Part shown: piece after piece, positions 6,818-57,636 of the stretch
Numbering within the stretch: the first letter of the stretch is position 1
Layout: each line of letters starts with the position of its first letter
From: an uncultured Acidobacteriota bacterium
Lineage (GTDB): Bacteria; Acidobacteriota; Thermoanaerobaculia; Multivoradales; SZUA-115
Direction: 5' to 3'
DNA length: 64,000 bases
Assembly: GCA_963805975.1 (NCBI GenBank)
Contig: CAWDVR010000004.1
Location: 528,977 to 592,976 of the forward strand
The notes under the pieces: generated by a model
What the model was told of the DNA's origin: nothing
Database searches by the model: none
The model's input: the letters and a program-made list of their open reading frames with translations, nothing else
Made by a program: the position numbers and the translations under genes

Positions 6818-6835
6818 CTCACGAAGGACGAAGGA

Positions 6836-7318: not shown

Positions 7319-7327
7319 GGAGGCCCC

Positions 7328-13243: not shown

Positions 13244-13674
13244 GTTCCCTCCTGGACGAGCGCGGAGACGAGCTTTGCCGCCAGCTCCTGGCCGGCCTCC
13301 GCCTCCAGCCGCCCGGCCCGCCAGTCGATGTCGAGGCCGCTGCCGGCGAACTTGGGGATCAGGTGGAAGTGGACGTGCATCACCACCTGGTGCGCGGCGC
13401 TGCCGTTGTTCTGCAGCACGTTGTAGGCCGTGGCACCGGTCACCCGCTTCACGGCCCGCGCGAGGCGCGGCAGCACGCGGCCGATGGCGGCCCCGGCCTC
13501 GTCGGAGAGCTCGTCGAGCTGCGCCCGGCGCTCTTTTGGGATCACCAGCAGGTGGCCCCGCGACAGCGGGTTGATGTCCAGGAAGGCGAGCACGTGCTCG
13601 TCCTCGTAGACGCGGTGGCAGGGGATCTCGCCGTCGAGGATGCGGTCGAAAATGGTGCGTTCGCGGTCGCTCAT
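13240..13674 (-). CDS. HIT family nucleotide hydrolase
   Basis: TIFDRILDGEIP; HVHFH triad. Confidence 0.93.
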   Translation of the reverse strand: MSDRERTIFDRILDGEIPCHRVYEDEHVLAFLDINPLSRGHLLVIPKERRAQLDELSDEAGAAIGRVLPRLARAVKRVTGATAYNVLQNNGSAAHQVVMHVHFHLIPKFAGSGLDIDWRAGRLEAEAGQELAAKLVSALVQEGT

Positions 13675-13796
13675 AGAGATTTCTGGCGGTGGTTTTGGTG
13701 TCCGCTCGTCCGTGCGCCTATGATAGTAGTAATTCGCGCCCGGCAGCCCCCGGACTGAATCACGCGGGCCGAATCAATGCGGGCCGGAAGCTCGGC

Positions 13797-14174
13797 ATGA
13801 CCTCAATCCCCCAGGATCGCAGCGCCCTGCCGCGAGCTCGCTCGCTGGTCGCTCTCCTCCTCGCGCTGCTCTGCCTGCTGAGCACGGCCGAGCTGCACCG
13901 CGACCACTCGCTGCTCGACGATCACTCGTCGGCCGATCTCGGGTCCGCCGGTTGCCACCCGACGCTCGCGACGCACCTCGAGCCACCTCACGAGCCCGGT
14001 TCCCGGGAGTGTCCGGCCTGTCTGCTCCGTCTCGTCACCCGGGGCGCGATGCTGCCCACCGAGATGGCGTTCGACGCCTCGCTCGCGCCTCTCGGGAGAG
14101 TGGCGGAGCAGGGTTTCGCCGCTCGCTTCGCGCCGCCTGTCGCGAGCCTCTCCCGCGGTCCTCCCTCCGCCTAG
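13797..14174 (+). CDS. DUF2946-like leader protein (signal/TM segment, His-rich region, CPAC, C-terminal RGPP)
   Basis: Hydrophobic N-terminus; HRDH..H; CPAC; ends SRGPPSA, 100 bp before a TonB receptor. Confidence 0.7.
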   Translation: MTSIPQDRSALPRARSLVALLLALLCLLSTAELHRDHSLLDDHSSADLGSAGCHPTLATHLEPPHEPGSRECPACLLRLVTRGAMLPTEMAFDASLAPLGRVAEQGFAARFAPPVASLSRGPPSA

Positions 14175-14273
14175 ATCCTTCCCTTGCAGTCGCAGCCCTG
14201 TCCGGTTCCGCCGGTCGGGGTCTCCTTCGACGTCGCAAGCTCGCTCCGTCCACCGGGGCCGGGAGAAGTGATC

Positions 14274-37726: not shown

Positions 37727-37753
37727 GGTTCGGTTCGAGCTCGCAATGCCCTG
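37727..37753. repeat. Left arm of the 27-bp inverted repeat flanking the integrated element
   Basis: GGTTCGGTTCGAGCTCGCAATGCCCTG matches the reverse complement of 52106-52132 at 26/27. Confidence 0.85.
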
Positions 37754-37947
37754 GGAGGCGCGCAGCGTTACACACGAGTAGGTACCTGGAACTCCCACGA
37801 AATCCCTTAAATCACTGCCACTGTTGACTTTGGAGTCGGACTGAGTATGTTCTTGTCCCATGAGCTACGCCCGAGTTGCGCGCCCACTGCATGCCCCTCG
37901 CATGCCGTGGAGCGTGCCCGAAGGCGGCCTCGAACAGGGAGGAGAGC

Positions 37948-39180
37948 ATGCGAGTCAAGTTCAGTAAAGCCACTCTTGCCAACGCGAAGCCGGGTCCGAC
38001 GCGATACCTTCTTCGAGATACCCGCACCGTGGGGCTCGCACTCAAGGTTGAGCCCTCGGGCACGCGGACCTTCGTCTTCGAGTACCGAGTCCCCGGCAAG
38101 CCGTCGCAGCGCTACAACATCGGCCGCTACGGCGAGCCCTGGACTCTGGAGCAGGCCCGGGCCGAAGCCGGACGATTGCGCTCACTCGTGGACCGTGGCC
38201 TCGATCCGCTGACCGAGCGGCGGAAAGAGGCCAGCGAGGGCCGCAGTCTGGCAGAGCTTGGCGAGATGTTCCTCGCTCACGTCGAGAAGTGTGGGCGCCG
38301 GCCTGCCACGCTCTACCGCTATCGCCGGCTCCTGAGGCAGTTCATCCTTCCGCGCCTGGGTCTGCTGCGAGTGGATCAGATCGGCGTCGAGCACGTCGAG
38401 CGCCTCCATGGGGCTCTTCAGAAGACTCCCGTCCAGGCCAACCTGGTCTTGGTGGTCCTGGGTTGCTGCTTGACGCTGGCGGAGCGTTGGGGGTGGATCC
38501 CTCGGGGCTCGAACCCGGTGCGGTGGGTGGAGCGCTATCCGAGGCGCAGGCGCGGGGAGAAGAAGGGCGTGATGCTCAAGCCCGAGCAGATGGCTCGGCT
38601 CTTGGCGGTACTGGACGAGGAGGAGCGAGCCGGGCGTGATCCGCTCGCGATCGGTGCGATGCGGCTTGCCTTCTGGACGGGGTGGCGAGCGAAGAGCGAG
38701 ATTCTGCCTCTCCAATGGGCGAACCTCGATCTCGAGGGCGGCGAGGCGAGGCTTCTCGGCACGAAACGGGCCGAGGAGGAGTACCGGATGCTCTGCGATG
38801 AAGCGGTCGCGGTGCTGCGGTCCCTGCCGCGCATCGACGGCAGCCCGTGGGTTTTCCCTGGGATCGATCCTGCGAGGCCGCGTCGAAACCTCCAGTGGTT
38901 CTGGGAGCGGGTGCGCAGGAAGGCCGGCCTGGTGGGCTTGGAGGAGCTAGGTAACTTCCGGCTCCATGACCTGCGTCACAACGTCGTCAGTTGGGACGTA
39001 TCGCGCGGGGTGAGCTTGAAGGTGGCGGGCGCCAACGTCGGCCACAAGTGCCAACAGTCCACCGAGGTCTACGCCCACTTCCTGCCGGCTCATCTAAGAG
39101 ACGCGGCCAACGCGCGCTCCCAGGCCATGCGGCAGGCCCTGGAGGCCGCGCAAGGCCGCAGCGAGCAGGAGGAGGTGTGA
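37948..39180 (+). CDS. Tyrosine integrase with N-terminal arm-binding domain
   Basis: RDTRTVGLALKV..SG.RTFVFEYR...IGRYG arm domain; TGWR, HDLRH, GH...TEVYAH catalytic motifs. Confidence 0.92.
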   Translation: MRVKFSKATLANAKPGPTRYLLRDTRTVGLALKVEPSGTRTFVFEYRVPGKPSQRYNIGRYGEPWTLEQARAEAGRLRSLVDRGLDPLTERRKEASEGRSLAELGEMFLAHVEKCGRRPATLYRYRRLLRQFILPRLGLLRVDQIGVEHVERLHGALQKTPVQANLVLVVLGCCLTLAERWGWIPRGSNPVRWVERYPRRRRGEKKGVMLKPEQMARLLAVLDEEERAGRDPLAIGAMRLAFWTGWRAKSEILPLQWANLDLEGGEARLLGTKRAEEEYRMLCDEAVAVLRSLPRIDGSPWVFPGIDPARPRRNLQWFWERVRRKAGLVGLEELGNFRLHDLRHNVVSWDVSRGVSLKVAGANVGHKCQQSTEVYAHFLPAHLRDAANARSQAMRQALEAAQGRSEQEEV

Positions 39181-39342
39181 GGATGCCCAGGTCCAACCAA
39201 CGCGCTCTAGCAGCCCGTGGGCCGCCTGGAAGCGATGTCTGCTTCGAAGACCGCGGCCCCCAAGCCGCACCCAGAAACCAAGCGGGCCGACCGAGTGCGT
39301 GAACACCCGGCCGACCCTAGCCGACCATGGAGCCGTAACCCC

Positions 39343-39780
39343 ATGACCGACCGAGAGCAGTCTACCGCTGCCGCAATACCTCTACCCGATCCCCCTCCAC
39401 CCCCCGAGGAGCCGCCCTCGCCGCCTTCGCCCTTGGATGCCTGGGAGGAGCTCCAGCCCATCCGAGAGACGTTCCTCCACCACGTGGGCAACGCCGAGAC
39501 TCAGCAGGCTCTCCGCGCGATTGGCGATTACTTCTACCAGGCCGTTCTCGAATGGCGGAACTTCCCCGACGCGGAAACACCGATCATCCTGCTGGAGCTC
39601 GAAGCCGTGGCCAAGGACGTGCGCTATCTCCAGGGCTTTCTGCACCACACGGTGGCCGACGACGGCCGGGGCACTCTGGCCGATGCCCGGTACGAGCGCT
39701 GGCTCAAGGTGAAGGCCGAGGAGTGGGCCGACACCCTCGGCGAGGTCGCCACCGAGATCGAGAAGGCGGTGGCGGAATGA
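39343..39780 (+). CDS. Hypothetical protein of the element (start uncertain, alternative 39235)
   Basis: Pro-rich N-terminus then helical domain; GC-type codon usage. Confidence 0.6.
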   Translation: MTDREQSTAAAIPLPDPPPPPEEPPSPPSPLDAWEELQPIRETFLHHVGNAETQQALRAIGDYFYQAVLEWRNFPDAETPIILLELEAVAKDVRYLQGFLHHTVADDGRGTLADARYERWLKVKAEEWADTLGEVATEIEKAVAE

Positions 39781-40498
39781 AGCCCGCCTGCCGGAGGTCC
39801 GAGCGCCTCCAGCGACCCACCTAGAAACACTCTCTACGCCGCCCGGGCCTCCAGGAAACAGGAGAGCCCGGCGGCTTCCCCCAGCTCTCCGAAACACGAC
39901 CTGTCGGACCACTGGAGGCCACCTGAGGACGCGCTGCCGGAGGGAGGGGACTCGCGAGGCCCGCCCCAAGCTGCGGCTGGAGTGGCCGTCCCTCGCAGAC
40001 TCGGGTACGCGCCAGGCGCTCCGCACGCCCCACGCCGGCGGCCCCCCTCACCTCGGCCCTGCCGCCGTCCTGGGGCGTGCTGTGGGTCGCTGTCCGGGAA
40101 TGGCCATTCCCGGACCTGTCGCTCGGCCAGCCTAGCCTTGGCCCTCGCTGTGCGAGGGCTTGGACATAACGCGTGGCGCTATGTCAACTTGGGCGGGGTG
40201 TCAGGGCCTGCGGCCGGCCCCGGCTTCGGCATCTCGCCGGACACTCTATGTCAGTGTTTGTTCGCGGATTCTGAGTCAGGATCAGCAGAGTCGCTCTAAG
40301 CTCAAAGGATCTATTTACGCCGGCTTGATCGAGTGGCCTATCGGGCCTAGATTGACGGCATACGCTTAGCATGCGGTCTGGCGGACGACAGAAGGCTAGT
40401 TAGCGGACTAGCCCGACAGGGCGATCCTGACTCGCGGCGGGGCGAAGATGTCAGGGGGCGAGAACTATCCTCGCCCGAACTCGGTCCGTGTCGCAGTC

Positions 40499-40569
40499 AC
40501 CCAACGGGTTAGCATCAGTAGCGGAACGCGCGTTCTGCGGTTCTGTCTGCTGCAGGCCCCGAGTTGGCC
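40499..40569 (-). other. attC-like integron cassette recombination site
   Basis: Minus strand GGCCAAC-TCGGGGCCTGCAGCAGAC...GCTACTGATGCTAACCC-GTTGGGT, 35 bp after the stop of 40604-40795. Confidence 0.55.
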
Positions 40570-40603
40570 GACCTTTGCGATTCGAGACGATCGAACGATT
40601 CCC

Positions 40604-40795
40604 CTACCGGTCCTTGTTGCCCTTGCGGTACTTGTCGCCAGCCGCCTTATCTGCCCCATCCTTACTGACGCCTTTTCCAGAGTAGGTTGCGCCCCCTTTG
40701 TGGATCGTAGTCTTGTGAGCTTCGCCGATTCCCGTCCCGAGGAACGACGCGCTCATACGGCTGACCTTGTCCGGGCGACTACCCTTTTTGCTCAT
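40604..40795 (-). CDS. Small basic hypothetical protein (63 aa), cassette-like
   Basis: AAGGAGG RBS before ATG; followed by an attC-like site. Confidence 0.6.
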   Translation of the reverse strand: MSKKGSRPDKVSRMSASFLGTGIGEAHKTTIHKGGATYSGKGVSKDGADKAAGDKYRKGNKDR

Positions 40796-40882
40796 GGAAT
40801 CCTCCTTTGATCACCGGCCGAGGGTATCACCCTCTCTGAGGCTGTGGCTTGCTGGCCACCGCTTTCTTAGACCGCTCACTTC

Positions 40883-41437
40883 TCATCGCAGTATGGCAAT
40901 TCGGGCTACAGACGCGACCAAGCTGCCGGCGCCAACCGCGATGGGTACCCACCGCTCAAGAACGGCACGCACTGAAAGAACTCGGAAGTGCTGATCGATC
41001 TCGGCACGAAAGAGCCGTGTGAACTCAGCGCGCTTCCCGCCCAGCCAGACCTCGAACTCTTCAGGATTCTCGTCTGGTTCCGGCGCGAGATTCGTGTACT
41101 GAGCGGCTAGCCTTGCGGCGGAACTTGAAAAGACACGCTCGCGGTCCATGGCCCAAGCCTTTAGATCGGCCGTGCTGTAGATCCAGAATGCCGTCAGTAA
41201 GTAGATCTGCACCGCGCAGAGAACTCCAAGCAGTCTGCCGGTATCACCGGCCGAGAGTTCGACGCCCAATGCATCGATCCTGGAGGGGATCACCCCTCCA
41301 ACCGCGACCACGAGTTGCGTAACGCTGACGGTTAGCAATGCCCGCCTCTCTTTGCGCGACTCCTCTGACAGAGGATCTACGAGGGCCCTCGCCTCAGTGA
41401 TTTCGGCCCGTTCTTCCTTTTCCCAGATCTTCGGCAT
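40883..41437 (-). CDS. Hypothetical membrane protein (about 3 TM), cassette-like
   Basis: Hydrophobic segments; ATG with AGGA RBS directly after GTTGGCC. Confidence 0.65.
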   Translation of the reverse strand: MPKIWEKEERAEITEARALVDPLSEESRKERRALLTVSVTQLVVAVGGVIPSRIDALGVELSAGDTGRLLGVLCAVQIYLLTAFWIYSTADLKAWAMDRERVFSSSAARLAAQYTNLAPEPDENPEEFEVWLGGKRAEFTRLFRAEIDQHFRVLSVRAVLERWVPIAVGAGSLVASVARIAILR

Positions 41438-41452
41438 CGGTTCCTCATTGCC

Positions 41453-41514
41453 GGCCAACGGCTACCCGTCTGATCGCGTGGCGTCAGCCGCTCGCTCCAG
41501 CCGGTTGATTGGGC
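41453..41514 (-). other. Degenerate attC-like site
   Basis: Minus strand GCCCAAT-CAACCGGCTGGAGCG...CGATCAGACGGGTAGCC-GTTGGCC, overlapping the upstream gene end. Confidence 0.45.
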
Positions 41515-42323
41515 ATCTTTAGGGCGCCCTTCTCTTCAGGCCAAGCTCGCTCAAACCAAGAATAGTGAGCTCCGTCCGGATCCTCGAAGTCTTCGCACGC
41601 CACCCAGATCTCCGCCTCGGGCCTCCTCGCTAGGCTCGCGACCAAGGCTCTCCACCAGGCTTCCCCGGCGTGTGCAACGGAGCCTTGCGGATCAAGCAGC
41701 ACGACTTGGCGATCGTTGCTGTACGCCGCAAACTTTTTCATGGCCGAGGCAAGGAGTCTCTCGAGCTCAGCTGTGAGCTCCGCGGGAATCGGCCTCGGCG
41801 CCTGCCACATCTCCAGCGGCAGCAGGAATCTCACGCTGGTCTCGTGGGCGTACTCATCAAGATCTGATTCGCGAAGGTGCCGCAGACTCCAGTTCGGCTG
41901 GCCCCTCTTCTCGATCCCCTGGCCAGCCTCCAGAACCGACCAGTGCTCTGCAACGATTCGTGCCATCTGCCCCACCGTCTCCTCAATCTCCGCTCTCCGA
42001 GTAGGCCGATCGCCGGATATTGCGAGCTCATAAGGGCCATCGAGCACGGCAGTTGGGAGAGCTGCACGAAGGGCACCAATCAGGGCATGATCTGACGAAT
42101 GTCGGACTACGTACTCGGCCGGCCACACAAGGCACTTCCGCTCGATAACCATCCGACCCCTGCATCGGTCGCAGTACAGTGCTTCAGGCTGGGGCGTATC
42201 CCGGATCCGTATGTCGAGACAAGTGACGTGCTCATACGCAGAGCCCTCGACATCGTTAAGCTGTTCGACTAAGGGCTGAACGCGCCAGAACTCGCAACCG
42301 CCACTCTCGGGTAAACAGCTCAT
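41484..42323 (-). CDS. Hypothetical protein, possible PD-(D/E)xK nuclease fold
   Basis: PQPEALY...MVIERK pattern; 279 aa. Confidence 0.55.
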   Translation of the reverse strand: MSCLPESGGCEFWRVQPLVEQLNDVEGSAYEHVTCLDIRIRDTPQPEALYCDRCRGRMVIERKCLVWPAEYVVRHSSDHALIGALRAALPTAVLDGPYELAISGDRPTRRAEIEETVGQMARIVAEHWSVLEAGQGIEKRGQPNWSLRHLRESDLDEYAHETSVRFLLPLEMWQAPRPIPAELTAELERLLASAMKKFAAYSNDRQVVLLDPQGSVAHAGEAWWRALVASLARRPEAEIWVACEDFEDPDGAHYSWFERAWPEEKGALKMPNQPAGASG

Positions 42324-42880
42324 TAGTCCCCCACGCACGTCGCGCCCAAATCAGTGCTCTGCATTGGACGGTCCAGGCCTCCAGGATCCTTGAGATCCTC
42401 ACTTGTTCGTCGAGGTCCTAGAGGGGTTAGGGCTATGTCCATGCGAATCGATTTCGGATGCCAGTACTTAGCAGCATTCTACGCCTACTTGAATAAGAGT
42501 CAACGAGGCCGAGAGCCCTGGCTTGGTGCCTCGCCCCAAGACCCCGCCTGAGCTCGCTATCGCTCGGCTCTTCCGGCTGCATGAAGAGCGACTGAAATAC
42601 GGTTCACATTTGAACCTTGGTCTCTCTGTCTCACCTCTGGTACCTCTTTGCCCCATGCGCGGAGCCTGGATACCCAACCTCTCGGAGCTTGTCCGTTCAG
42701 CCCTCTTGGAGCGTCCCTCTCAGCGACCGCGGGGGGCCGAGGACGAATCTCGCCCCCTACAGCAAGCTCCTGCGTCCAGCCTCCTCGCCGTCGGTCGGTC
42801 GCTGCGAGTCAACTTCTTGCCGCCGCCTGGGCTCCGAAGAGGAGCCACCGGCAGCAAAGCATTGCCTTGGAGGGTAAGCG

Positions 42881-43156
42881 ACGGATTTCTCCTCTGGCTC
42901 GGGCTCACCGTTCCTGACGACGAAGCAAGCCGCCGCGTACCTGCGCCTGGAGCCCAGCACGCTCGAGAGCTGGCGTTCCGTCGGAGGCGGCCCTGTGTTC
43001 CACAAGCTCGGCGGGCGCATCTACTACACCCGCGCCGACCTCTAGGCTTGGATTGAGTCCCGGCGTTGCCGATCGACTGCCGAGCACTGGGCGAGAAGGT
43101 CAAGGGATCGTCCTACCGAGCGCTCCGGCTTCCTCGGTCGAACCTCGAAACCGTAA
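42881..43156 (+). pseudogene. Excisionase-like HTH (HTH_17/AlpA-like) pseudogene
   Basis: FLTTKQAAAYLRLEPSTLESWRSVGGGPVFHKLGGRIYYTRADL*AWIESRR; in-frame TAG at 43043; ACG instead of ATG after GGAGG. Confidence 0.8.
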
Positions 43157-43208
43157 CGGTCGGGTGCTGCCGGCCGGTGCCGCTCCGAAGGACTCGGAGG
43201 AGTCGGCC

Positions 43209-46200
43209 TCACCGCCGCAGGCGTACGCGGGCCTCCTCGCCTTCTGCCAGCACGTCTCGAATCCAGTGACCTGCCCGCTGCGCGATGCTGCGCCCGAGAG
43301 ACAAGCTCCAGGTCACGGCGATGTCGAAGGCACGGGGAGCAGCTTCCGCCGAAGCGCGAGCCAGGTTGCCCAAGTGGGAGGCTGCCGCATCGGGTGGCAA
43401 TCCACGACTGGAGGCGACCTCGACCCAGGCCGCTCGCCAGGCCAGCTCTGAGACGTCCCGTGGCGGCCGGCCGGGCTCGGGAAGCTCTGCGAAGGCACGC
43501 TGTTGGCCGTCGAGGTGCCGGAGCCAGGTCACGGCCTCGGCCGAGTTGGCGAAGAGCCTGACGGCCTCCTCTGGCCGCAGAGCCTCGCCTCCGGCGAGCC
43601 GCTTCGCCCGTTCCAGGATCTCGGGGGTCAACCGCGCCAGCGCGTCGAGGCCGGCGCGCGGGTCCTCGGTCGGCCTGGCCATGGGCAGTGTGATTCGGTG
43701 AGCGGGGATCTCGATCAGGAGAGCCGCATTCAGCCGGCGCAGGGCCTCGGGGGAGAGGTCCCCGGCAGCAACCCGCGAGGTGATCTCCGCCAACCGCTCG
43801 CGGGCCGTGGCCGATTGGATGGCGAGGGCCTCTTCCACGGCTGCCCGCTCCGAAGACTCGACCCGCCACCAGCCGTAGCCGCGAAGCGCCTCGGCAGGCT
43901 CCTGGCGCGTGAGCTCACGGAGCTTCTGCTCCGCACTCGCCGGCCGGGCCTCTCGCGCTTCCGCGCGCTCCAGTAGGAGCTGGGCGACGGTTCGCTCCTG
44001 CAACGACTCCACGGCTTCCGGCCAGCGCTGGGCAAGCCCTCCTTCTGCGCGCAGCCTCGTCCAGTGCGCCTCCAGCTCGCCGAGGTGGGCGCGACACTCG
44101 GCGACGGAAGTCGAGGCGCCTGCCGGCGCCTGGGGCGAAAGCCCAAGCTGGATCAAGAGCCGCGCTTCCCGCCGAATCAATCGCTCGTAAGCGTTCCAGG
44201 TCTCGTCGGGCCGCTCGCGTTCCAGGAGTGCCCAGCCGAAGCGCTCTCGATGGAGGGAGAGCTGTACCAAGGCCAGCCGCGAGTACGCATGCTCGGCCTG
44301 CTCCATCTCTCCCCGAGCGAGACTGTAGGTGTGAGCGAGCGCCTGATAGGCGGAGATCCTCTCCAGTGACGGGGCCGCTTCGATGCTCGCCGCGGCCGTC
44401 TCCACCCGCTGCCAAGCCGAAAACATCTTCCCGCGCGCATCCTCGAAGGCTTGCCGAGCCTCGCGAAGCCTGCCGGCAAGCTCGCCCTCGACTACCAGCA
44501 ACCGGTCTCCAGCCTCCCGCGATCCTCCTGGCTCCCGGGCCAGTGCTTCGGCGATCACCTCCCGATTGACCCTCTGGGCTCGTGCGAGAAAGTCGTCCAC
44601 GGGCTCGTAGGTCCCAGCGGCGCCTGGGTCGTGAGGAGACCGCCGCTCTGGAAGTGACAAACGAGCTTCGATGCCGCCCAGACGGCCCGGAGATGGAAAG
44701 TCAACGCGGGAGTAGTGGAGCGGGATCTCCGCGCGAGCGAGAGGCGCTTCGAGGCGTGGAGTGTCCAAACGTCGTAGCCGCTCGTGTAGATCCTCGCGGC
44801 GTTCGCTGCGCAGCCCGTCGAGCCAGGGCCGCGACGCCGAGAACGGCTCCTCCCGTACCTCGGCAAGCCTCACTCGGACCCGCTCGCCAGCCGCTTCGAA
44901 CGAGGTTCCGGGGAGTCGGATGGCATCTCGGAATATGCCCCGCGGCTCTGCGATGCCGAAGCGGTCCGCGAGGCCCTGGCGCAACGCCTGCTCCTCGTCC
45001 TGCGAGAGGGCCTGATGGCTTCGTAGCCACAGGTCATAGCGCTCGCCCGCACGAACCAGGACGGCCGGCTCGAAGCCATGATGGCGCAGAGTGACCACCT
45101 GCTCGGCGGTCAAGTCGCGAAAGGCCACCCTGCGGGACCGGTCCTCGCCGATCCGCCGCGCCAGAATCGCAGCCGCTCCCGAGCGCTCTGCCCGGCGGGC
45201 CTCGGTGAGCGCCTGTTGGAGGGTCAGGCTGCCCCGCGATGGGTCGAGCAAGCGAGCCTCGACCCGCTGCAAACCCTCTGCGGCCTCCTTGGGGCTCAAG
45301 GGCAGCACGATGTAGCTTCCTCCCGGCATGGAGCGGTCCGTGCGAAGCCAGTCGAGCGAGACGAGCTGCCGGGCCGGCAGCTCCGGCCGTTGGTTGAGCT
45401 GCCGCAGATCCTCGGCGCCGTCCGGCTCGTGTTGCAGAGCCTTGCGAAGCCTCCGAGGGCGGGAGCCCTGCTCGGGTGAGCCTTGGGAGGGAGCACTACC
45501 TGCCAGACGAAGCACCTGCTCCCGGTCGCGACCGGGATCGTAGGCGAGCTGGAAGGTGGAGACGAGCTTGCCTGCGCGGAAGGCTCGACCGAGCTGCGAC
45601 CCCTTGAAGGCTATGCCATCGCGCGAGAAGGAGATCCCTCTTAGCTCACCATCCTTGTCCAAGAGTACGTGCGTCGAAAACCCTCGGGCTCGTAACGTCG
45701 CCAGAAACTCAGCAAGGGTCCGTGCGTCCCTCGCCACCTGGGCCACTTCCACCTGAAACACGGCCCGCATCGACTCCTCACCCTGCGCGGCGCGCTTCAT
45801 CTCGCCTTGGCTGGGACTCTTGAGGAACGCCGCCTCGGGCGGTTCGACTCGCACGAGGTTCCATCGGTTCTCGATCTCGCGGGCGATCCGTACACAGCGC
45901 AGCTTGTCGAAAGCCTCGGAGATTGGCTGGCCCTCCCAGGTCGTCGGTGTGGTCACGAGGTGCACGTGGTCGTTGTCGGTGTCCTTGTGGAGGAAGGCCA
46001 CGTAGGGCGCTTCGCCGTAGCCCATCCTTTGGAGGAAGAAACGCACCGCCTCTCGCATCTCGTCGTCCGGCCGATGCTCGCCGGTCGCGTACGAGAGGAC
46101 GAAATGCTTCACGAACTGCTTCTTCCTGGACCGATAGGTACTGTTGACATCCGTGATCCAGCTCGCCCACTCGCTGGGGGTGGAGCCTGGGATGTTGGCG

Positions 46201-46292
46201 TCCAAGAGAAAGGCGTTGGGTCGTGCCGTGCGCCCAAGGTAGTCGATCAGCCGCCGAGGCTGCGAGCCCACCTTGCACAGCTTCACGATCAC
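43209..46292 (-). CDS. MOBP-type relaxase with probable RepB-primase-like central domain and long helical tail
   Basis: N-terminal LIDYL, HFVLSY, HKDTDNDHVHLV (HUH), FKGSQLGRAF; DLTAEQV...GFEPAVLV...YDLWLR. Confidence 0.87.
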   Translation of the reverse strand: MIVKLCKVGSQPRRLIDYLGRTARPNAFLLDANIPGSTPSEWASWITDVNSTYRSRKKQFVKHFVLSYATGEHRPDDEMREAVRFFLQRMGYGEAPYVAFLHKDTDNDHVHLVTTPTTWEGQPISEAFDKLRCVRIAREIENRWNLVRVEPPEAAFLKSPSQGEMKRAAQGEESMRAVFQVEVAQVARDARTLAEFLATLRARGFSTHVLLDKDGELRGISFSRDGIAFKGSQLGRAFRAGKLVSTFQLAYDPGRDREQVLRLAGSAPSQGSPEQGSRPRRLRKALQHEPDGAEDLRQLNQRPELPARQLVSLDWLRTDRSMPGGSYIVLPLSPKEAAEGLQRVEARLLDPSRGSLTLQQALTEARRAERSGAAAILARRIGEDRSRRVAFRDLTAEQVVTLRHHGFEPAVLVRAGERYDLWLRSHQALSQDEEQALRQGLADRFGIAEPRGIFRDAIRLPGTSFEAAGERVRVRLAEVREEPFSASRPWLDGLRSERREDLHERLRRLDTPRLEAPLARAEIPLHYSRVDFPSPGRLGGIEARLSLPERRSPHDPGAAGTYEPVDDFLARAQRVNREVIAEALAREPGGSREAGDRLLVVEGELAGRLREARQAFEDARGKMFSAWQRVETAAASIEAAPSLERISAYQALAHTYSLARGEMEQAEHAYSRLALVQLSLHRERFGWALLERERPDETWNAYERLIRREARLLIQLGLSPQAPAGASTSVAECRAHLGELEAHWTRLRAEGGLAQRWPEAVESLQERTVAQLLLERAEAREARPASAEQKLRELTRQEPAEALRGYGWWRVESSERAAVEEALAIQSATARERLAEITSRVAAGDLSPEALRRLNAALLIEIPAHRITLPMARPTEDPRAGLDALARLTPEILERAKRLAGGEALRPEEAVRLFANSAEAVTWLRHLDGQQRAFAELPEPGRPPRDVSELAWRAAWVEVASSRGLPPDAAASHLGNLARASAEAAPRAFDIAVTWSLSLGRSIAQRAGHWIRDVLAEGEEARVRLRR

Positions 46293-46690
46293 GGCGACTC
46301 TCCAGCCGCCCTCTCGCCACCCAGCACGGCGAAGATTGTCTCCAGGAGCAGCCGAAGCCTCTCGAGGGTCGGAGCCAGGGCCTCCGGCGCCCGATGGGTG
46401 TAGGTGAGGACGAGAAGTTGGTTGAGATTGTTGCCCAGCCGGTTGAGCTCCCCGATCAGGCGCAGGTCGACCGCGGAGCGTGCGGGGCGCACTCGGTGTC
46501 GCAGTCCTAGCTCTCGGAGGTAGGAGGAGACCGCCAACCCTGCCGCAGTAGCCGACTCCTCAAGCGTAGCGAGCTCCGTGGGTGAGAGCCGAACTCGACA
46601 ACCGAGGTTGCGCCGCTCAGGCTCGGGCAACTGGGGCCGGCCTCGCTGGCGAGGTCGGACACCCGATCCTTGGCGCAGTGTGTCGCTCAA
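46289..46690 (-). CDS. mobC: Mobilisation accessory protein (ribbon-helix-helix)
   Basis: VRLSPTE...GLAVSSYLRE; ELNRLGNNLNQL; overlaps the relaxase start. Confidence 0.88.
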   Translation of the reverse strand: MSDTLRQGSGVRPRQRGRPQLPEPERRNLGCRVRLSPTELATLEESATAAGLAVSSYLRELGLRHRVRPARSAVDLRLIGELNRLGNNLNQLLVLTYTHRAPEALAPTLERLRLLLETIFAVLGGERAAGESP

Positions 46691-46974
46691 CTCGTCGCCA
46701 CTCCGGGACCGGGGCAGGAGCGCTCCTCACTTTGCGGCTGGTCAAATTTACGGCCGTAAACGCGGCCCGATAGTCGAGGGGTCCAGCCTGAAAAATTTTG
46801 GCCCCAAAATTCGCACAAGTACCTCAGCGAGAGCTGTTCGGTTAGGACTCGCCGGCGTGAAGTTGAAATCGGTCCGCTTCCGTTTACGGTTCGTAAATCT
46901 GCGCCATCGTCTCGGCGAGCGCGGTGGGTCAGAACTCGCCGCAGAAGCCTCTTCCCGAGCGGAGCGAGCGCTTC

Positions 46975-47057
46975 CGGGGGTCCAGGGGCTCGCCCCTGGC
47001 AAGCGGCCCGTGAGCTTGCGAGCGGGGGTTTTTCGTGCAACGAAAAAACAGCTTGCT
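46975..47057. other. Putative oriT
   Basis: CCAGGGG-ctcg-CCCCTGG hairpin and TTTTTCGT-gca-ACGAAAAA inverted repeat followed by CAGCTTGC (nic-like), upstream of mobC. Confidence 0.55.
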
Positions 47058-47347
47058 CGTCTGCTCCGGATGCGCTCACGAAGGCAGGCTACGGTGGCTT
47101 CGACAAACCGCGCAACTGTCGGACCGAGGAAGAAAGAAGAGGTTGTATCGAGCTCCTGGAAACCTGATGAATTTCACTCCGTCGAGGAAGCGGCAGGCAC
47201 CTCGCTCCAAGGATGCTTACGGGCGCTGAAGACCAATTGAGAGGAGACGGTGGCCCCCAGGCCCGACCCTTGGTGTGTAACTAATGGGCAGCAATGCAGC
47301 ACGCACGTGGAGGTGGGTTGGTTTGGATTTGCTAGCATGCGGCAATC

Positions 47348-50300
47348 GTGAACAACCTGGCGGCGGCAGAGAGGCGGGTCGAAGATGCGTTGCGCACCAG
47401 ACTGGAACATCTGGACCTCGGAGACCTAGCCCTAGAGCGCTTACCCACGCGCCTGCGAGAGCTCACTCATCTCCGAGTCTTGGCTCTGGGATGCCTCCGA
47501 CTGAGAGACGATGGGACTTTCGAGTGGGACAGCGATAGACAGCCTCCGTCCTTTTCCGACCTGTCAGCCTTGGCCGGGCTCCAAGGACTTCAGAGTCTGA
47601 ACCTCAGCTACTGCGGGGGCGTGACGGACCTGTCTGCCTTGGCCGGGCTCCAAGGCCTCCAGAGGGTGGACCTCAGCTACTGCGGGGGCGTGACGGACCT
47701 GTCTGTCTTGGCCGGGCTCCAGGGCCTCCAGAGCCTGAACCTCAGCTTCTGCAAGGGCGTGACGGACCTGTCTGTCTTGGCCGGGCTCCCAGGCCTCCAG
47801 AGCCTGTACCTCAGCGGCTGCGAGGGCGTGACGGACCTGTCTGTCTTGGCCGGGCTCCCAGGCCTCCAGAGCCTGTACCTCAGCGGCTGCGAGGGCGTGA
47901 CGGACCTGTCTGTCTTGGCCGGGCTCCCAGGCCTCCAGAGCCTGGACCTCAGCGGCTGCGAGGGCGTGACGGACCTGTCTGTCTTGGCCGGGCTCCAAGG
48001 CCTCCAGAGCCTGAACCTCAGCGGCTGCGAGGGCGTGACGGACCTGTCTGTCTTGGCCGGGCTCCAAGGCCTCCAGAGCCTGTACCTCAGCGGCTGCGCG
48101 GGCGTGACGGACCTGTCTGTCTTGGCCGGGCTCCAAGGACTCCAGAGCCTGAACCTCAGCTCCTGCGCGGGCGTGACGGACCTGTCTGTCTTGGCCGGGC
48201 TCCAAGGACTCCAGAGCCTGAACCTCAGCTTCTGCAAGGGCGTGACGGACCTGTCTGTCTTGGCCGGGCTCCCAGGCCTCCAGAGCCTGTACCTCAGCGG
48301 CTGCGAGGGCGTGACGGACCTGTCTGTCTTGGCCGGGCTCCCAGGCCTCCAGAGCCTGTACCTCAGCGGCTGCGAGGGCGTGACGGACCTGTCTGTCTTG
48401 GCCGGGCTCCCAGGCCTCCAGAGCCTGGACCTCAGCGGCTGCGAGGGCGTGACGGACCTGTCTGTCTTGGCCGGGCTCCAAGGCCTCCAGAGCCTGAACC
48501 TCAGCGGCTGCGAGGGCGTGACGGACCTGTCTGTCTTGGCCGGGCTCCAAGGCCTCCAGAGCCTGTACCTCAGCGGCTGCGCGGGCGTGACGGACCTGTC
48601 TGTCTTGGCCGGGCTCCAAGGACTCCAGAGCCTGAACCTCAGCTCCTGCGCGGGCGTGACGGACCTGTCTGTCTTGGCCGGGCTCCAAGGACTCCAGAGC
48701 CTGAACCTCAGCTTCTGCAAGGGCGTGACGGACCTGTCTGTCTTGGCCGGGCTCCAAGGCCTCCAGAGCCTGGACCTCAGCTACTGCCGGGGCGTGACGG
48801 ACCTGCCTGGCTTGGCCGGGCTCCAAGGCCTCCAGAACCTGGATCTCAGCTTCTGCCGGGGCGTGACGGACCTGTCTGTCTTGGCCGGGCTCCAAGGCCT
48901 CCAGAGCCTGGACCTCAGCTACTGCCGGGGCGTGACGGACCTGTCTGCCTTGGCCGGGCTCCAAGGCCTCCAGAGCCTGAACCTCAGCTCCTGCCCGGGC
49001 GTGGCGGACCTGTCTGCCTTGGCCGGGCTCCAAGGCGTCCAGAGCCTGAACCTCAGCGGCTGCGAGGGCGTGACGGACCTGTCTGCCTTGGCCGGGCTCC
49101 AAGGCGTCCAGAGCCTGAACCTCAGCGGCTGCGAGGGCGTGACGGACCTGTCTGCCTTGGCCGGGCTCCAAGGCCTCCAGAGCCTGAACCTCCGTAACTG
49201 TAAGGGCGTGACGGACCTGTCTGGCTTGGCCGGGCTCCAAGGCCTCCAGAACCTGAACCTCAGCTCCTGCCCGGGCCTGATGGACCTGTCTGCCTTGGCT
49301 GGGCTCCAAGGCCTCCAGAGCCTCGACTTCAGCGACCGCCAGGGTGTGACGGACCTGTCTGCCTTGGCCGGGCTCCAAGGCCTCCAGAGCCTGAACCTCA
49401 GCGACTGCCTGGCCGTGACGGACCTGTCTGCCTTGGCTGGGCTCCAAGGCCTCCGGAGCCTGAACCTCTACTCCTGTCGGCCGCCGATCGAAAACACCGT
49501 TCTTCGGAACCTGGTGGCAAGCCCTCGGCTAGCGAGCCTCATCTGCGACGAGGGGGAGAGCATGCCGCGAGAGGTTCTCTCGCATGAGTCCGATGAAGAC
49601 TGTCTCCCACGTCTCCGTAGCTTCTTCGCTGAGATCGACCGAGGCGCAGAGGCGGAGCGGGAAGTGAAAGTGATCCTGCTAGGCAACGGCTGTGTTGGGA
49701 AGACTCAGCTCTGTCGTCGGTTTCGCGATCAGCCTTTCGACGAAGCGATTGGATCGACTCACGGAGTCCAGATCTGGCGGGACGAGCTCCGACTCCCATC
49801 GCGTGGCGAGCCAGAGAATGCATTTCAGGTGAACTGGTGGGACTTCGGCGGACAGGACATCTACCACGGCACGCATGCGCTTTTCCTACGCAGTCGCGCC
49901 GTGTTCCTGCTTCTCTGGACCCCACAGCTCGAGAACCGCGACGAATACACGGAGCAGGGCATCCCGCTACGCAACCAACCCCTTGCCTACTGGCTGGACT
50001 ACGTCCGTACTCTGGCTGGCGACGGCAGCCCCGTGATTGTGGTGCAAAGCAAGTGCGACACCTTCAAGCACGAGCTCTCAGCTCCGAATAGGCCCGAGGG
50101 ACTCGAATTCTTCCGCTGTTGCGCCTACAGTGCCGTCACGGATTTTGGCAGAGAAGTTCTCGAAGTCCAGCTCCGCGAAGCGGTGCGCTTCCAGCTTGAG
50201 AAAACCGGCTCTCTAGCCATCGGACACGCTCGCGCTGAGGTTCGCCGCCGGCTCTATCAGATGCGCAGCGAGGACCAGGAACAAAGACCAGAGGATCGTC

Positions 50301-51835
50301 GGCACCGCACTCTAACTCTGGACGAGTTCCGCAGCCTCTGCGAGGAGGTGGGCGGCATTGCCTCGTGGGAGCATGCCCTCGACTACTTCCACCACACCGG
50401 CGTGGTCTTCTATCGCCCGGATCTCTTCTCCAATCGCATTCTCCTCGATCAGGACTGGGCGCTCGAAGCGATCTACACCGTATTTCATCGCGGCCGAGCC
50501 GCGCGCTGGCTGCGGGACTCTGGGCGCTTCAGCCGCGAGGATCTCTCGATGATGGCCTGGCAACAGCATTCGGTGGAGGAGCAGAAGCTCTTCCTCGGGC
50601 TGATGGAGAGCTGCGGCGTGTGCTTCGCATGCGGTACCGCTTCCCTGGGGGAGACGATCTATGCGGCGCCGGACCTGTTACCACTGTTTTCGGCTGTGCA
50701 AGGGCGGCTCTTCGGCTGGAAGGACGACCCCCAAGCACCGTCCTTGTGGCTCGAGTATCAGTTTTTTCACCCCGCAGTGATTCGCGGCCTGATGAGCGCG
50801 ATCGGCCGCCAGGCGGGAGAGGCCGCCGAGTATTGGAAGTATGGGTTCCGGCTCTGGGATCGCAAGCGAGATGCTCAGATCCTGATCCAGCAGCATGACA
50901 CGAGCACCAACGAGACACCGGGACAGGGAGCCCTGGAGCTGACGGCGCAGGGCCGTGATGCACTCGGCCTTCTCCGCGGGATCTGGAAGGAGATCCGGCA
51001 ACGTCAGATTGGCGAGCCGCCCGAGGAGTTCCTGAGCCTGGAGGGCGTGACCGTTTCGCGCAGCGCCATGGCCAACGCCATGGAGGGCCAGACGCACGCG
51101 ACGGATGGACGAGTGGTGCCTGTTGCGCCGTTCGCAGCCTTCTTCGAGGACCGCGAGCCCGAAGCCACCGGCGGGAGACGGCCCACCGAACTCCGGCTCG
51201 ACTTCGATCCCGGTATCCCTCCAGCGGGGGAGAAACTGCCGGAGGTGTTCATCTCCTACGCTTGGGGGGACGACAGCATGGAAGGACGTGTGCGGACCGA
51301 GGTGGTTGAGCGTCTGTGCGCGGCGTTGAAGATGGATGGCTTTGCACCGGTGCGGGACCGAGAGGCTCTGCGGCCGGGCGAGCTCATCTCTGCCTTCATG
51401 AAGCAAGCGGCAAGAGCCAACCACGTCGTGGCCGTGATCAGCGACAAGTACCTGCGCTCACCGTACTGCATGTTCGAGATCCACAGGATCTACCAGCAGT
51501 GCGAAGCCGAGGCGGAGAGGCTGGCAAGGCGCGTCCTGCCGATCGTCTTACCCGACGTTCGGCTGGCGACTTTCGAGGAGCGAGCCCCGTATCTGCGCCT
51601 GTGGTCTCGGCGTGAGAAGACGCTCGGGAAGCTCATCCGCGACCCGGAGCTGCATCCCAGTGAGGCCTCCTGGACCGAGTACCGCCTTGTTCATGACTTC
51701 GCCCACCACGTCGACTCAATCCTCGGCTTCATCCAAGATGTTCTGATGCCCCGGAGGCTTGAGGTTCAGCTCGAGAATGGCTTCGAAGCCGTGAGGGAGG
51801 CCCTACGAAGGCGGATCGCGAGGGATGGAGCGTAA
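47348..51835 (+). CDS. Roco protein: 28 LRRs, Roc GTPase, COR and C-terminal TIR domain
   Basis: VKVILLGNGCVGKT, STHGV, WDFGGQDIYHGTH, SKCD; COR YFHHTGVVFY...LDQDW; TIR VFISYAW...ISDKYLRSPYCMFE. Confidence 0.93.
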   Translation: MNNLAAAERRVEDALRTRLEHLDLGDLALERLPTRLRELTHLRVLALGCLRLRDDGTFEWDSDRQPPSFSDLSALAGLQGLQSLNLSYCGGVTDLSALAGLQGLQRVDLSYCGGVTDLSVLAGLQGLQSLNLSFCKGVTDLSVLAGLPGLQSLYLSGCEGVTDLSVLAGLPGLQSLYLSGCEGVTDLSVLAGLPGLQSLDLSGCEGVTDLSVLAGLQGLQSLNLSGCEGVTDLSVLAGLQGLQSLYLSGCAGVTDLSVLAGLQGLQSLNLSSCAGVTDLSVLAGLQGLQSLNLSFCKGVTDLSVLAGLPGLQSLYLSGCEGVTDLSVLAGLPGLQSLYLSGCEGVTDLSVLAGLPGLQSLDLSGCEGVTDLSVLAGLQGLQSLNLSGCEGVTDLSVLAGLQGLQSLYLSGCAGVTDLSVLAGLQGLQSLNLSSCAGVTDLSVLAGLQGLQSLNLSFCKGVTDLSVLAGLQGLQSLDLSYCRGVTDLPGLAGLQGLQNLDLSFCRGVTDLSVLAGLQGLQSLDLSYCRGVTDLSALAGLQGLQSLNLSSCPGVADLSALAGLQGVQSLNLSGCEGVTDLSALAGLQGVQSLNLSGCEGVTDLSALAGLQGLQSLNLRNCKGVTDLSGLAGLQGLQNLNLSSCPGLMDLSALAGLQGLQSLDFSDRQGVTDLSALAGLQGLQSLNLSDCLAVTDLSALAGLQGLRSLNLYSCRPPIENTVLRNLVASPRLASLICDEGESMPREVLSHESDEDCLPRLRSFFAEIDRGAEAEREVKVILLGNGCVGKTQLCRRFRDQPFDEAIGSTHGVQIWRDELRLPSRGEPENAFQVNWWDFGGQDIYHGTHALFLRSRAVFLLLWTPQLENRDEYTEQGIPLRNQPLAYWLDYVRTLAGDGSPVIVVQSKCDTFKHELSAPNRPEGLEFFRCCAYSAVTDFGREVLEVQLREAVRFQLEKTGSLAIGHARAEVRRRLYQMRSEDQEQRPEDRRHRTLTLDEFRSLCEEVGGIASWEHALDYFHHTGVVFYRPDLFSNRILLDQDWALEAIYTVFHRGRAARWLRDSGRFSREDLSMMAWQQHSVEEQKLFLGLMESCGVCFACGTASLGETIYAAPDLLPLFSAVQGRLFGWKDDPQAPSLWLEYQFFHPAVIRGLMSAIGRQAGEAAEYWKYGFRLWDRKRDAQILIQQHDTSTNETPGQGALELTAQGRDALGLLRGIWKEIRQRQIGEPPEEFLSLEGVTVSRSAMANAMEGQTHATDGRVVPVAPFAAFFEDREPEATGGRRPTELRLDFDPGIPPAGEKLPEVFISYAWGDDSMEGRVRTEVVERLCAALKMDGFAPVRDREALRPGELISAFMKQAARANHVVAVISDKYLRSPYCMFEIHRIYQQCEAEAERLARRVLPIVLPDVRLATFEERAPYLRLWSRREKTLGKLIRDPELHPSEASWTEYRLVHDFAHHVDSILGFIQDVLMPRRLEVQLENGFEAVREALRRRIARDGA
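47555..49486 (+). repeat. 28 x 69-bp coding tandem repeat (23-aa LRR) with a 483-bp block duplication
   Basis: Unit TDLSxLAGLQGLQSLxLSxCxGV; units 4-10 (47762-48244) repeated as units 11-17 (48245-48727). Confidence 0.95.
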
Positions 51836-52105
51836 GTTCACCTTCCGCCGGACGCGATGAGAACGGGCCTTGATGACACCCTGCTGCCCTACTGAAGGGT
51901 CGCCAGAGAAGTAGACATCGACCGCGACTTGAGAACCCTCAAGATCGCATGCTGAGCGCATGCCGATGTCGCGCGGCAAGAGAATGCCTTCGCCGCCATC
52001 TCAGGAAGTTATAGATTCGATGGGGGCTTAGCGTGGCCCTCATCCGAGCCGTTCATCTCATACTGAGATCGCAGCGTTACCCGAAGGGGGCGTCGAGCAC
52101 CGCAT

Positions 52106-52132
52106 CAGGGCCTTGCGAGCTCGAACCGAACC
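52106..52132. repeat. Right arm of the 27-bp inverted repeat
   Basis: CAGGGCCTTGCGAGCTCGAACCGAACC. Confidence 0.85.
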
Positions 52133-55644: not shown

Positions 55645-57636
55645 GTGCGCCGTGAAAAGGCGGCGGTTTTCAGTGGGTGCGAAACCCACCCGGCAACTGG
55701 TCGCTCCAGCCGGTAGCAATCGGAGCGGTGGTGGAGGCAACGAAGCCATCGAAGCCTTCGATGAAGAGGGTCGCCTTGGGCGATCCGGCGACCCTGCAGG
55801 CCGAAACGTGAGTGAACGCCGAGCAAGCCTCGAAACGTTCGATGTGGGAGCCGACCCGTTTTCCATTCGGGGAAGGCCGTGGTTCCTGGACGGGATGAGC
55901 GACAGCATCCAGGGGTCCCACCGGGGTACTGGCGTCGGCATGCAGGGAAGAGGGAACCGAGCGCAACACGGGAAGCCCCAGCGGTGCCGGAGCGTGTCCG
56001 GCAACCGACAGCCCGCGAGGGTCGGGTTGGGCCGTCTGGGGTGGCGGGGAGGCCCGTAGTAGCGAGGAAGCCGGGTAATGCCGGTGGAGCGAAGGGGCCT
56101 CAGGGCAGGGTCAACGCAGGACGTAGCGAGAGCCGGAGATTGGCGGTGAGCCTACAACCTCCACCCAAGGTTCGGAAGCTACAGGCGGCGTTGCACGCCA
56201 AAGCGAAGGGAGCGCCCGGCTACCGCTTCTACGCGTTGTACGACAAGGTGCACCGCGAGGACATCCTGGAGCTCGCCTACCGGAGTTGCGCCGCCTCGGG
56301 CGGCGCGCCGGGGGTGGACGGGGTGACCTTCGAGGCCATCGAGACGTACGGGGTGGCGAGGTGGCTGGGGGAATTGGCGCAGGAACTCAGGAAGAAGGAG
56401 TACCGACCGCAGGCCGTACGGCGGGTCTTGATCCCCAAGCCGGACGGCAGGCAGAGGCCGTTGGGCATCCCGACCGTCCGGGACCGCGTGGTGCAGACGG
56501 CTGTAGTGTTGGTCTTGGAGCCGATCTTCGAGGCCGACCTCCAGCCCGAGCAGTACGCCTACCGGGAGGGACGGAGCGCGCTGGATGCGGTCCGCCGAGT
56601 CCACTCGCTGCTCAACACCGGACATCGAGAGGTGGTCAACGCGGATCTGAGCGGCTACTTCGACAGCATCCCGCACGCCGAGCTGATGACCTCGGTGGCC
56701 CGCCGCATCAGCGACCGGTGGATGCTCCACCTGATCAAGATGTGGCTCCAGGCGCCGGTGGAAGAGGCCGACGGGCGGGGGCGCAAGTGTCGGACGACCC
56801 GCAACCAGGACGAGGGCCGGGGCATTCCGCAAGGGGCTCCCATCTCGCCGCTTTTGTCCAACCTCTACATGCGCCGGTTCGTCCTCGGCTGGAAGGTGCT
56901 CGGCCACGAGGGCCGGCTCGACGCGCACATCGTCAACTATGCCGACGACTTCGTGATCTGCTGCCGCGGCAACGCCCAGGAGGCGATGGCTGCGATGCGG
57001 GGCATGACGGAGCGGCTGAAGCTGGCGATCAACGAGTCGAAGACCCGGCTCGCACGGCTCCCCGAGGAATCGGTGGACTTCCTGGGCTACACCATCGGTC
57101 GCTGCTGGTCGCCGAAGACAGGCCGGGCCTACATCGGCACGCGCCCGTCGAAGGCGCGGGTCCAGCGGGTCTGCCGCGAGATCAGCGAATTGACCAGCAG
57201 CCGGTGGCAGCTGCTCGACGTCCAGGACCGGGTAGCGCGTCTGAACCACCTGATGGTGGGGTGGGCGAACTACTTCCGCCTGGGCCCGGTCAGCAGGGCC
57301 TACAACACCGTGGACACCCACGCCTGTCGTAGGCTGCGCCAATGGCTGCGGCGCAAGCACAAAGTGCGGGGTCCGGGCTACGCACGCTTCTCGGACAAGT
57401 ACCTGCACGAGGATCTCGGCCTCGAGCGCCTCACCGTGCGCACCCGCAGCTTCCCGTGGGCGACCGCGTGATGTCCTGTCCGAGAGCCGGATGCGGGAGA
57501 TCCGCACGTCCGGTTCGACGAGCGGGGAAGAGGAGACGGAGCTATGGCGGAGACTGAGGCACCGGCACTACGGCGAAAGCCGCCGGCAACAGCTACTCCC
57601 TCGGCCTGGAGCTACCGCGCCTCTCCTCGACTCTAC
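55645..57636 (+). mobile_element. Group II intron, apparently full length
   Basis: 5' GTGCG at 55645; domain V GAGCCGGATGCGGGAGATCCGCACGTCCGGTTC at ~57484; domain VI ending CGACTCTAC at 57636; TCCCACCG (55916) complementary to the 5' exon end. Confidence 0.92.
56146..57471 (+). CDS. ltrA: Group II intron reverse transcriptase/maturase without endonuclease domain
   Basis: APGVDG, RPLGIPTVRDRVVQ, GIPQGAPISPLLSN, YADD, FLG, GWANYF. Confidence 0.93.
   Translation: MSLQPPPKVRKLQAALHAKAKGAPGYRFYALYDKVHREDILELAYRSCAASGGAPGVDGVTFEAIETYGVARWLGELAQELRKKEYRPQAVRRVLIPKPDGRQRPLGIPTVRDRVVQTAVVLVLEPIFEADLQPEQYAYREGRSALDAVRRVHSLLNTGHREVVNADLSGYFDSIPHAELMTSVARRISDRWMLHLIKMWLQAPVEEADGRGRKCRTTRNQDEGRGIPQGAPISPLLSNLYMRRFVLGWKVLGHEGRLDAHIVNYADDFVICCRGNAQEAMAAMRGMTERLKLAINESKTRLARLPEESVDFLGYTIGRCWSPKTGRAYIGTRPSKARVQRVCREISELTSSRWQLLDVQDRVARLNHLMVGWANYFRLGPVSRAYNTVDTHACRRLRQWLRRKHKVRGPGYARFSDKYLHEDLGLERLTVRTRSFPWATA

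Follow-up and report, generated by a model that had tools for sequence, protein, structure and literature searches.

A homogenised, recombining LRR array diversified at predicted binding-face codons, the likely sensor of a bacterial Roco-TIR gene on a mobile element

Introduction

Prokaryotic proteins with an AP-GTPase (Roc)-COR architecture, those with a TIR domain included, have been predicted to form a counter-invader system with rapidly evolving leucine-rich repeats (LRRs), as set out by Kaur et al. in 2021 (PMC8195603). Their structural behaviour has been described for the Chlorobium protein CtRoco, which forms a closed dimer in the nucleotide-free state and an open monomer with GTP, in which the LRR is swung away; binding of a nanobody to the concave LRR face is incompatible with the closed dimer (PMC11052575). 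In the LRR-ROCO genes of brown algae, LRR units of 23-24 aa are reported to shuffle, and about four sites on the concave face are positively selected (PMC3341825, PMC11378527). The fungal HNWD NLRs (het-d, het-e) are described as carrying WD40 repeats that are 80-100% identical and undergo concerted evolution, with gain and loss of units and a few hypervariable codons (PMC12222747), and the same repeat regime has been suggested for bacterial WD/TPR NLRs (10.1101/2020.01.06.895854). In addition, a Runella gasdermin protease is labelled Roc-COR-CHAT in a figure legend (10.1101/2021.06.07.447441).

Our literature search, which covered few subscription papers and left supplements aside, revealed no paper that reports homogenised LRR arrays under positive selection in bacterial Roco genes and none testing a bacterial Roco LRR array gene against phage. 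The physiological input of prokaryotic Roco proteins, which serve as structural models for LRRK2, is likewise not established in the literature covered.

Results

A Roco-TIR gene carried by a mobile element

The window, that is, the whole stretch of 64,000 nucleotides analysed, holds a single gene at 47348..51835 (+) in which an LRR array is followed by a Roc GTPase, a COR and a TIR domain, together encoding 1495 aa; the open frame spans 47336-51835, and the gene has a putative GTG start. Pfam searches with the 1495-aa protein returned LRR_4, Roc (residues 774-904), COR-A (982-1110) and TIR_2 (1300-1429), and no match to the COR-B model, although some relatives match it. The Roc domain (49667..50059, +; PF08477, E 3e-20) is a predicted GTPase with the motifs G1 GNGCVGKT, G2 STHG, G3 WDFGGQ and a G4-like QSKCD, and its G1-G3 motifs are near-invariant across 64 aligned relatives. 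The G4 motif of the clade, QS[Q/R/K]CD, is atypical: the usual lysine is Q in 58 of the 64 and K in the window's protein. The closest solved relatives of the Roc domain are the prokaryotic Roc-COR entries 4wnr, 3dpu and 6hlu. The COR-A domain lies at 50291..50677 (+; PF16095, E 4e-15), and the TIR domain, the predicted effector, at 51245..51634 (+; PF13676, E 1e-14). The glutamate Glu1377 in its SPYCMFE motif, which we take to be the NADase catalytic residue, is invariant (64/64 aligned relatives). No transmembrane or signal-like stretch was found in the 1495-aa protein (maximum 19-aa hydropathy 1.43), a promoter scan 5' of the gene returned nothing, and PADLOC gave no system match beyond a weak hit to the TIR region (bSEFIR). 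The gene is single-copy in its own genome (96% complete).

With a Roc GTPase followed by a COR domain (PF08477, PF16095 and the PDB Roc-COR matches), the protein belongs to the Roco family. Its central domain is Roc-COR rather than a NACHT or NB-ARC ATPase, which places it outside the NLR (STAND) proteins, although it would act in the manner of an NLR. An earlier reading of this DNA, made from the sequence only, had set the array in the frame of fungal NLRs. That frame holds as an analogy only, for the gene is bacterial and encodes a Roco GTPase that ends in a TIR domain.

The Roco-TIR gene is the last gene of a 14.3-kb integrative mobilizable element of lower GC (37761..52080, no strand assigned), which is bounded by an 11-bp direct repeat (37761-37771 / 52070-52080) and encodes a tyrosine integrase (37948..39180, +; PF13356 and PF00589) and a relaxase (43209..46331, -; PF03432, E 1e-19). 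In a genome of the same genus, both flanking host genes lie about 1.1 kb apart, the element is absent and no match to the 1495-aa protein was found. Full-length protein matches occurred in 4 of the 61 genomes searched, a patchy distribution. Terminal inverted repeats were also considered as element ends and were rejected, because the insertion split a host palindrome and these repeats are its two arms. This target (window 37727-37771 and 52070-52132) is one member of a genome-wide palindromic repeat family with a conserved 31-33-bp core and variable complementary arms, of which the source genome has 22 copies and the 20 relatives searched have none.

Several other features of the window and of the source genome were observed. 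Two further cargo ORFs of the element (40883-41461 and 41484-42350, both -) are low in GC and lack Pfam and PADLOC matches, and a group II intron with an RT-maturase occupies window positions 55671-57636. Elsewhere in the genome (contigs C1, C2, C5 and C6; loci L002-L005 and L009) there are at least four related integrase genes and one related relaxase gene, several of them at contig ends. The sibling integrases have no such palindromic repeat in front, and the cargo near them includes AbiEi antitoxin, caspase/CHAT, KAP NTPase, patatin and stand-alone TIR genes. A second homogenised sensor, with a DUF4062-like region, a NACHT domain and about 16 HEAT repeats, is encoded on contig C2 (L001:3959-8341) and lies near an IS110 and remnants resembling the element. 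Its array (6512-8055) consists of 99-bp units sharing 92% identity; their differences cluster in codons 24-27 (Y/E/A, Q/Y/G/D, P/T/N), and a block of five units has been duplicated and has since diverged (units 4-8 vs 9-13).

Units of the array are near-identical apart from a few codons

The homogenised LRR array (47558..49468, +) is built of 69-bp units of 23 aa; Tandem Repeats Finder reported a period of 69, 27.7 copies, 93% matches and 0% indels. Codon alleles were counted over units 2-27. The hypervariable codons are 15, 18 and 20 of the unit, which correspond to x5, x8 and x10 of LxxLxLxxCx. Codon 15 is AAC/GAC/TAC, plus a single silent GAT, codon 18 is TAC/TTC/GGC/TCC/AAC/GAC, and codon 20 is GGG/AAG/GAG/GCG/CGG/CCG/CAG/CTG; the recount reproduced exactly the allele lists of the sequence-only reading, which had named the same three codons. 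Two more codons, absent from that reading, vary non-synonymously: codon 4 (GCC/GTC/GGC; A/V/G) and codon 9 (CAA/CCA; Q/P). The remaining codons are near-fixed at silent sites too, and the near-identity that had been claimed for synonymous sites is seen even at codons that are rare downstream: TTG is present in 26/26 units and TCT in 25/26, while the C-terminal part uses TTG for 2 of 82 Leu and TCT for 4 of 40 Ser. The second half of unit 28 is divergent. Among the first 27 units 17 are distinct, and the other 10 are exact copies.

Pairwise identity between units averages 91% (range 83-100%). The best match of any of them to 198 23-aa units from 59 related genes is 80%, which is under the within-array minimum, and the nearest Roc-COR-TIR DNA is 70% identical. 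In addition, a proline that most family units keep at one position has been lost in all units here. The higher identity within the array than between genes, together with this loss, indicates that the array was amplified or swept uniform after the gene had diverged. As in the HNWD genes, the units are more than 80% identical and closer to each other than to those of other genes. The units are also mosaic: of the 34 informative pairs of sites that lie in different codons, 21 are incompatible, the parsimony length across units is 52 against a minimum of 38, and adjacent units are more alike than in shuffled order (5.1 vs 6.8 differences, P 0.0002, second block removed). Part of the homoplasy could come from recurrent mutation at selected sites. 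Judged from the units themselves, these comparisons show an array whose members all descend from one recent unit of this gene, with sub-unit tracts swapped among them, and they bear out the concerted evolution through recombination between units that had been proposed at the outset.

What generates this variation was then considered. A diversity-generating retroelement that mutates adenines at the variable codons would account for the alleles, which fit AAC->NAC/NNC and AAG->NNG, and a reverse transcriptase is encoded 4 kb downstream. That reverse transcriptase, however, has a GIIM domain, lies inside Rfam group II intron matches and is a group II intron maturase. Moreover, 16 of the 17 distinct units retain the silent adenine of codon 9 and all 17 retain four further adenines, and neither a template copy of the unit nor a paralogous LRR reservoir was found elsewhere in the 96% complete assembly (best E 0.006 over 38-50 nt). 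We therefore rejected the array as a retroelement target, an explanation with virtually no chance of being right. A search for a dedicated recombinase for the array also found none. Because there is no template, spare LRR copy or retroelement-type reverse transcriptase, ordinary slippage or unequal recombination between the 69-bp direct repeats would be the process that amplifies and homogenises the array.

A probable recent duplication of seven units

The duplicated seven-unit block of the sequence-only reading was recovered: units 4-10 (47765..48247, +) are identical to units 11-17 (48248..48730, +) within an exact repeat of 547 bp (47726-48272) at an offset of 483. Since there is not one difference over these 547 bp, the second block, though not the array, might be an artefact of assembly or polishing, and the true array would then have about 21 units. 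Short-read assemblies are described as adding or dropping such repeats (PMC12222747). Among the relatives, 22 clusters group several records whose C-termini are identical, and in 4 of them the number of units is not constant, possibly because one and the same DNA was assembled with errors. Breaks 5' of the Roc domain affect 38 of 160 loci, and 12 are broken at the 3' end. One read run (X1, share 0.10) yielded scattered exact pieces of 151 nt, none of which spans the duplication; the one piece in the array, however, matches units 18-20 exactly. Against an artefact, the assembly consists of 6 contigs and resolves repeats of 1.0-1.6 kb at 98-99.9% identity within them, as long reads do, and higher-order duplications that have since diverged exist in the NACHT-HEAT array and in two relatives (L065, L138). 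We consider an artefact improbable: the resolution of kilobase repeats inside six contigs favours a real and very recent duplication.

Affiliation and array length of the relatives

Among the best 120 of 513 matches, 85 are 51-67% identical over Roc-COR-TIR, and those that are named are labelled Thermoanaerobaculia or Acidobacteriota. The array is among the two longest of 86 close relatives, with an N-terminal length of 778 aa vs a median of 360 aa. For comparisons of length, 162 of 270 records were complete enough; the 108 dropped, which lacked a recognised N-cap or had short C-termini, included the colinear pair P0048/P0139 and the unequal pair L065/L066. Of 11 pairs with 85-99% C-terminal identity, 9 have LRR regions that are unequal in length by 15 aa or more, and among syntenic orthologs one site has arrays of 8, 13 and 14 units and a second site arrays of 6 and 17. 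Two pairs of orthologs are nevertheless colinear. In P0017/P0126 (14 units, 89% C-terminal identity), 3 of 49 variable-class sites and 12 of 266 other sites differ, so that both classes are equally conserved; in P0048/P0139 the counts are 6 of 20 and 13 of 114, with the variable class changing more. These pairs suggest that shuffling is episodic rather than constant, and amplification looks episodic as well.

Other arrangements were seen among the relatives. In three loci (L049, L019, L098), 22-aa and 23-aa unit types are interleaved in one homogenised array, which suggests that unit length itself is shuffled. In L077 a long region resembling conflict systems is fused to or abuts the LRRs on the upstream side, and in L034 a second, LRR-only ORF lies just downstream (13402-14277), possibly a spare or broken copy.

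Amino-acid change is in excess at x5, x8 and x10

To measure selection, the minimum number of changes needed to connect the alleles was counted codon by codon, which makes the measure insensitive to recombination. At x5, x8 and x10 there are at least 14 non-synonymous changes over 7.3 sites vs 10 silent changes over 18.2 sites, a ratio of 3.5. This is the excess of amino-acid change that the per-codon dN/dS check suggested with the original reading was meant to look for. For the set defined from the family (x3, x5, x7, x8 and x10) the ratio is 2.5 (P 0.017), and at the other positions it is 0.57. Because the three codons were picked post hoc, a neutral simulation was scored on its own top three codons. 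The simulation included tract conversion, GC bias of up to 0.9, six fully neutral exposed codons and a uniform starting array, and runs with 8-12 silent changes were kept (190-1221 of 2500 per setting). Across eight settings, the observed top-three value was matched in 0-0.35% of the kept runs (P<=0.004) and the value for all six codons in 0-2.1%. As this null starts from uniformity, the retention of old alleles lies outside it.

These values bear on whether a single LRR has recently undergone run-away amplification, with relaxed exposed positions whose variation is neutral and creates no specificity. The exposed x positions are variable in all LRRs, and the exceptional length of the array and its ten exact copies would be expected from such a process. 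Relaxation, however, predicts a ratio of about 1, and the ratios observed are 2.5-3.5 here and 2.0-3.1 when pooled at x5, x7 and x8 in the relatives. Neutral simulations almost never match the data, and the equally exposed Q12, S13 and S17 are near-fixed. Neutral amplification is thus disfavoured, and we give it little chance.

The same excess was sought in the family, using 138 non-redundant genes (23 redundant loci were dropped) and a filter of at least 6 equal-length units with a mean identity of at least 0.82. This filter was passed by 30 arrays in 29 of the other 137 genes; overall, no more than 30 of the 138 genes carry a strongly homogenised array. The ratio exceeds 1 at x5, x7, x8 and x10 in 29 of these 30 arrays, which are kin and not independent, and at the a-priori xxLxLxx set in 27; elsewhere it is below 1 in all 30. 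Pooled ratios at x5, x7, x8 and x10 are 1.96, 2.57, 3.05 and 1.35. The excess holds for the 22-, 23- and 24-aa LRR types and is also seen in L065, whose 19 units lie in a single-contig chromosome record of 8.3 Mb. Codons 7 and 8 of the relatives also show raised silent change, suggesting that some of the diversity arose when old alleles were exchanged as whole codons and not by new mutation. These ratios, here and in the relatives, and the differences in array length agree with the rapidly evolving LRRs expected of counter-invader systems. Selection would thus keep x5, x8 and x10 diverse while the scaffold is swept uniform.

The variable residues are predicted to lie on the binding face

A single-sequence structural model (pLDDT 77.5, pTM 0.65) has a beta-strand over S-L-N-L-S of every unit. 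Because x5 is mid-strand between two core leucines, it would point outward on the concave sheet, and in this model x8 and x10 lie on either side of the cysteine, within the loop that follows the strand. All three are thus predicted to be exposed on or just after the concave-face strand, in agreement with the placement originally proposed, with exposure deduced from secondary structure. The few diversifying codons therefore fall on the putative binding face, as located by the secondary structure of the predicted model. The top Foldseek match of the LRR model is the LRR of the Chlorobium Roco (5il7), followed by internalin A complexes and TLR ectodomains.

Discussion

TIR domains can cleave NAD+ through a conserved glutamate. 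By analogy with the Chlorobium Roco, the LRR curvature would bind a ligand, most probably a protein of a phage or another invader. Binding would open the closed Roc-COR dimer, favour the GTP state and rearrange the TIR domains, whose cleavage of NAD+ would then lead to arrest or death of the cell. The diversifying selection on the LRR face throughout the family and the conserved TIR effector argue for ligand-gated immune receptors. Taken together, the array is a homogenised, recombining LRR domain with excess change at three predicted binding-face codons, and it is probably the fast-evolving sensor of a single-gene counter-invader receptor. Shuffling of its repeats may, as first proposed, give rise to new specificities.

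The same sensor might diversify in response to something other than an invader, namely a protein of the host or of sister cells (in self/non-self recognition, guarding or addiction to the element) or a non-immune signal. The fungal HNWD proteins, which evolve in the same mode, are described as reading the self protein HET-C (PMC12222747), and variable-class residues are kept in the colinear orthologs. In addition, most relatives sit among housekeeping genes and outside defence islands, the element-borne state being the exception: integrase and relaxase queries at 160 relative loci (48 with at least 5 kb on both sides) gave one weak integrase match and no relaxase match. When 25 loci were scanned (101 of 161 called ORFs), about 5 had neighbours resembling defence or toxin-antitoxin genes, a count given with no background rate. 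On the other hand, the non-synonymous excess in 29 of 30 arrays, the patchy presence and a TIR domain with an invariant Glu fit an arms race, and the gene is alone as element cargo, with no partner gene seen. We regard a non-invader ligand as unlikely. The selection is most likely driven by a ligand from an invader, although the genomic context, including the PADLOC outcome, speaks for this weakly.

If the array is such a sensor, an element-borne allele of 28 units, caught just after a seven-unit duplication, would provide a ready test of prokaryotic Roco sensing; the selection signature points to the residues worth testing, and a single self-contained gene on a mobile element is easily transferred to a laboratory host. 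The mode of receptor evolution by repeat homogenisation would also be extended from fungi and algae to bacterial LRRs. More tentatively, bacterial Roco-TIR genes may be mobile single-gene analogues of NLRs that recombine a few unit variants fast enough to track phages within populations, an intron-less counterpart and possibly the ancestral form of the exon shuffling in brown-algal ROCO genes; we find this conceivable rather than likely.

Compared with the AP-GTPase-COR systems (PMC8195603), the protein has the same order of N-terminal LRRs, AP-GTPase, COR and C-terminal effector, and TIR is among the effectors listed there, where the system is known as a prediction. Section 15 of that account contains no DNA-level homogenisation, site-specific amino-acid excess or unit recombination. 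It also describes several paralogs with different effectors per genome in some hosts, as possible and not required, whereas the present gene is one copy on an integrative element. The LRR-Roc-COR core is shared with CtRoco (PDB 5il7, 6hlu, 8r4b), which provides both the top structural match of the LRR and sequence matches of Roc-COR; the sequence is distant (E 1e-13), however, and the solved constructs described in PMC11052575 comprise LRR-Roc-COR only, while the protein analysed here adds a homogenised array of 28 units and a TIR domain. The brown-algal ROCO genes likewise encode a Roco protein with shuffling LRR units that are positively selected on the concave face. In the algae, as described in PMC3341825 and PMC11378527, each LRR is an exon, subject to shuffling and alternative splicing, with spare intronic copies and no TIR domain, whereas the units here are contiguous DNA repeats without a reservoir. 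The HNWD proteins differ in combining a NACHT ATPase with WD40 repeats instead of a Roc GTPase with LRRs, and their ligand and cell death have been proven according to PMC12222747. The architecture and the evolutionary mode are each already in print, and what this locus presents is a case with an unusually long array.
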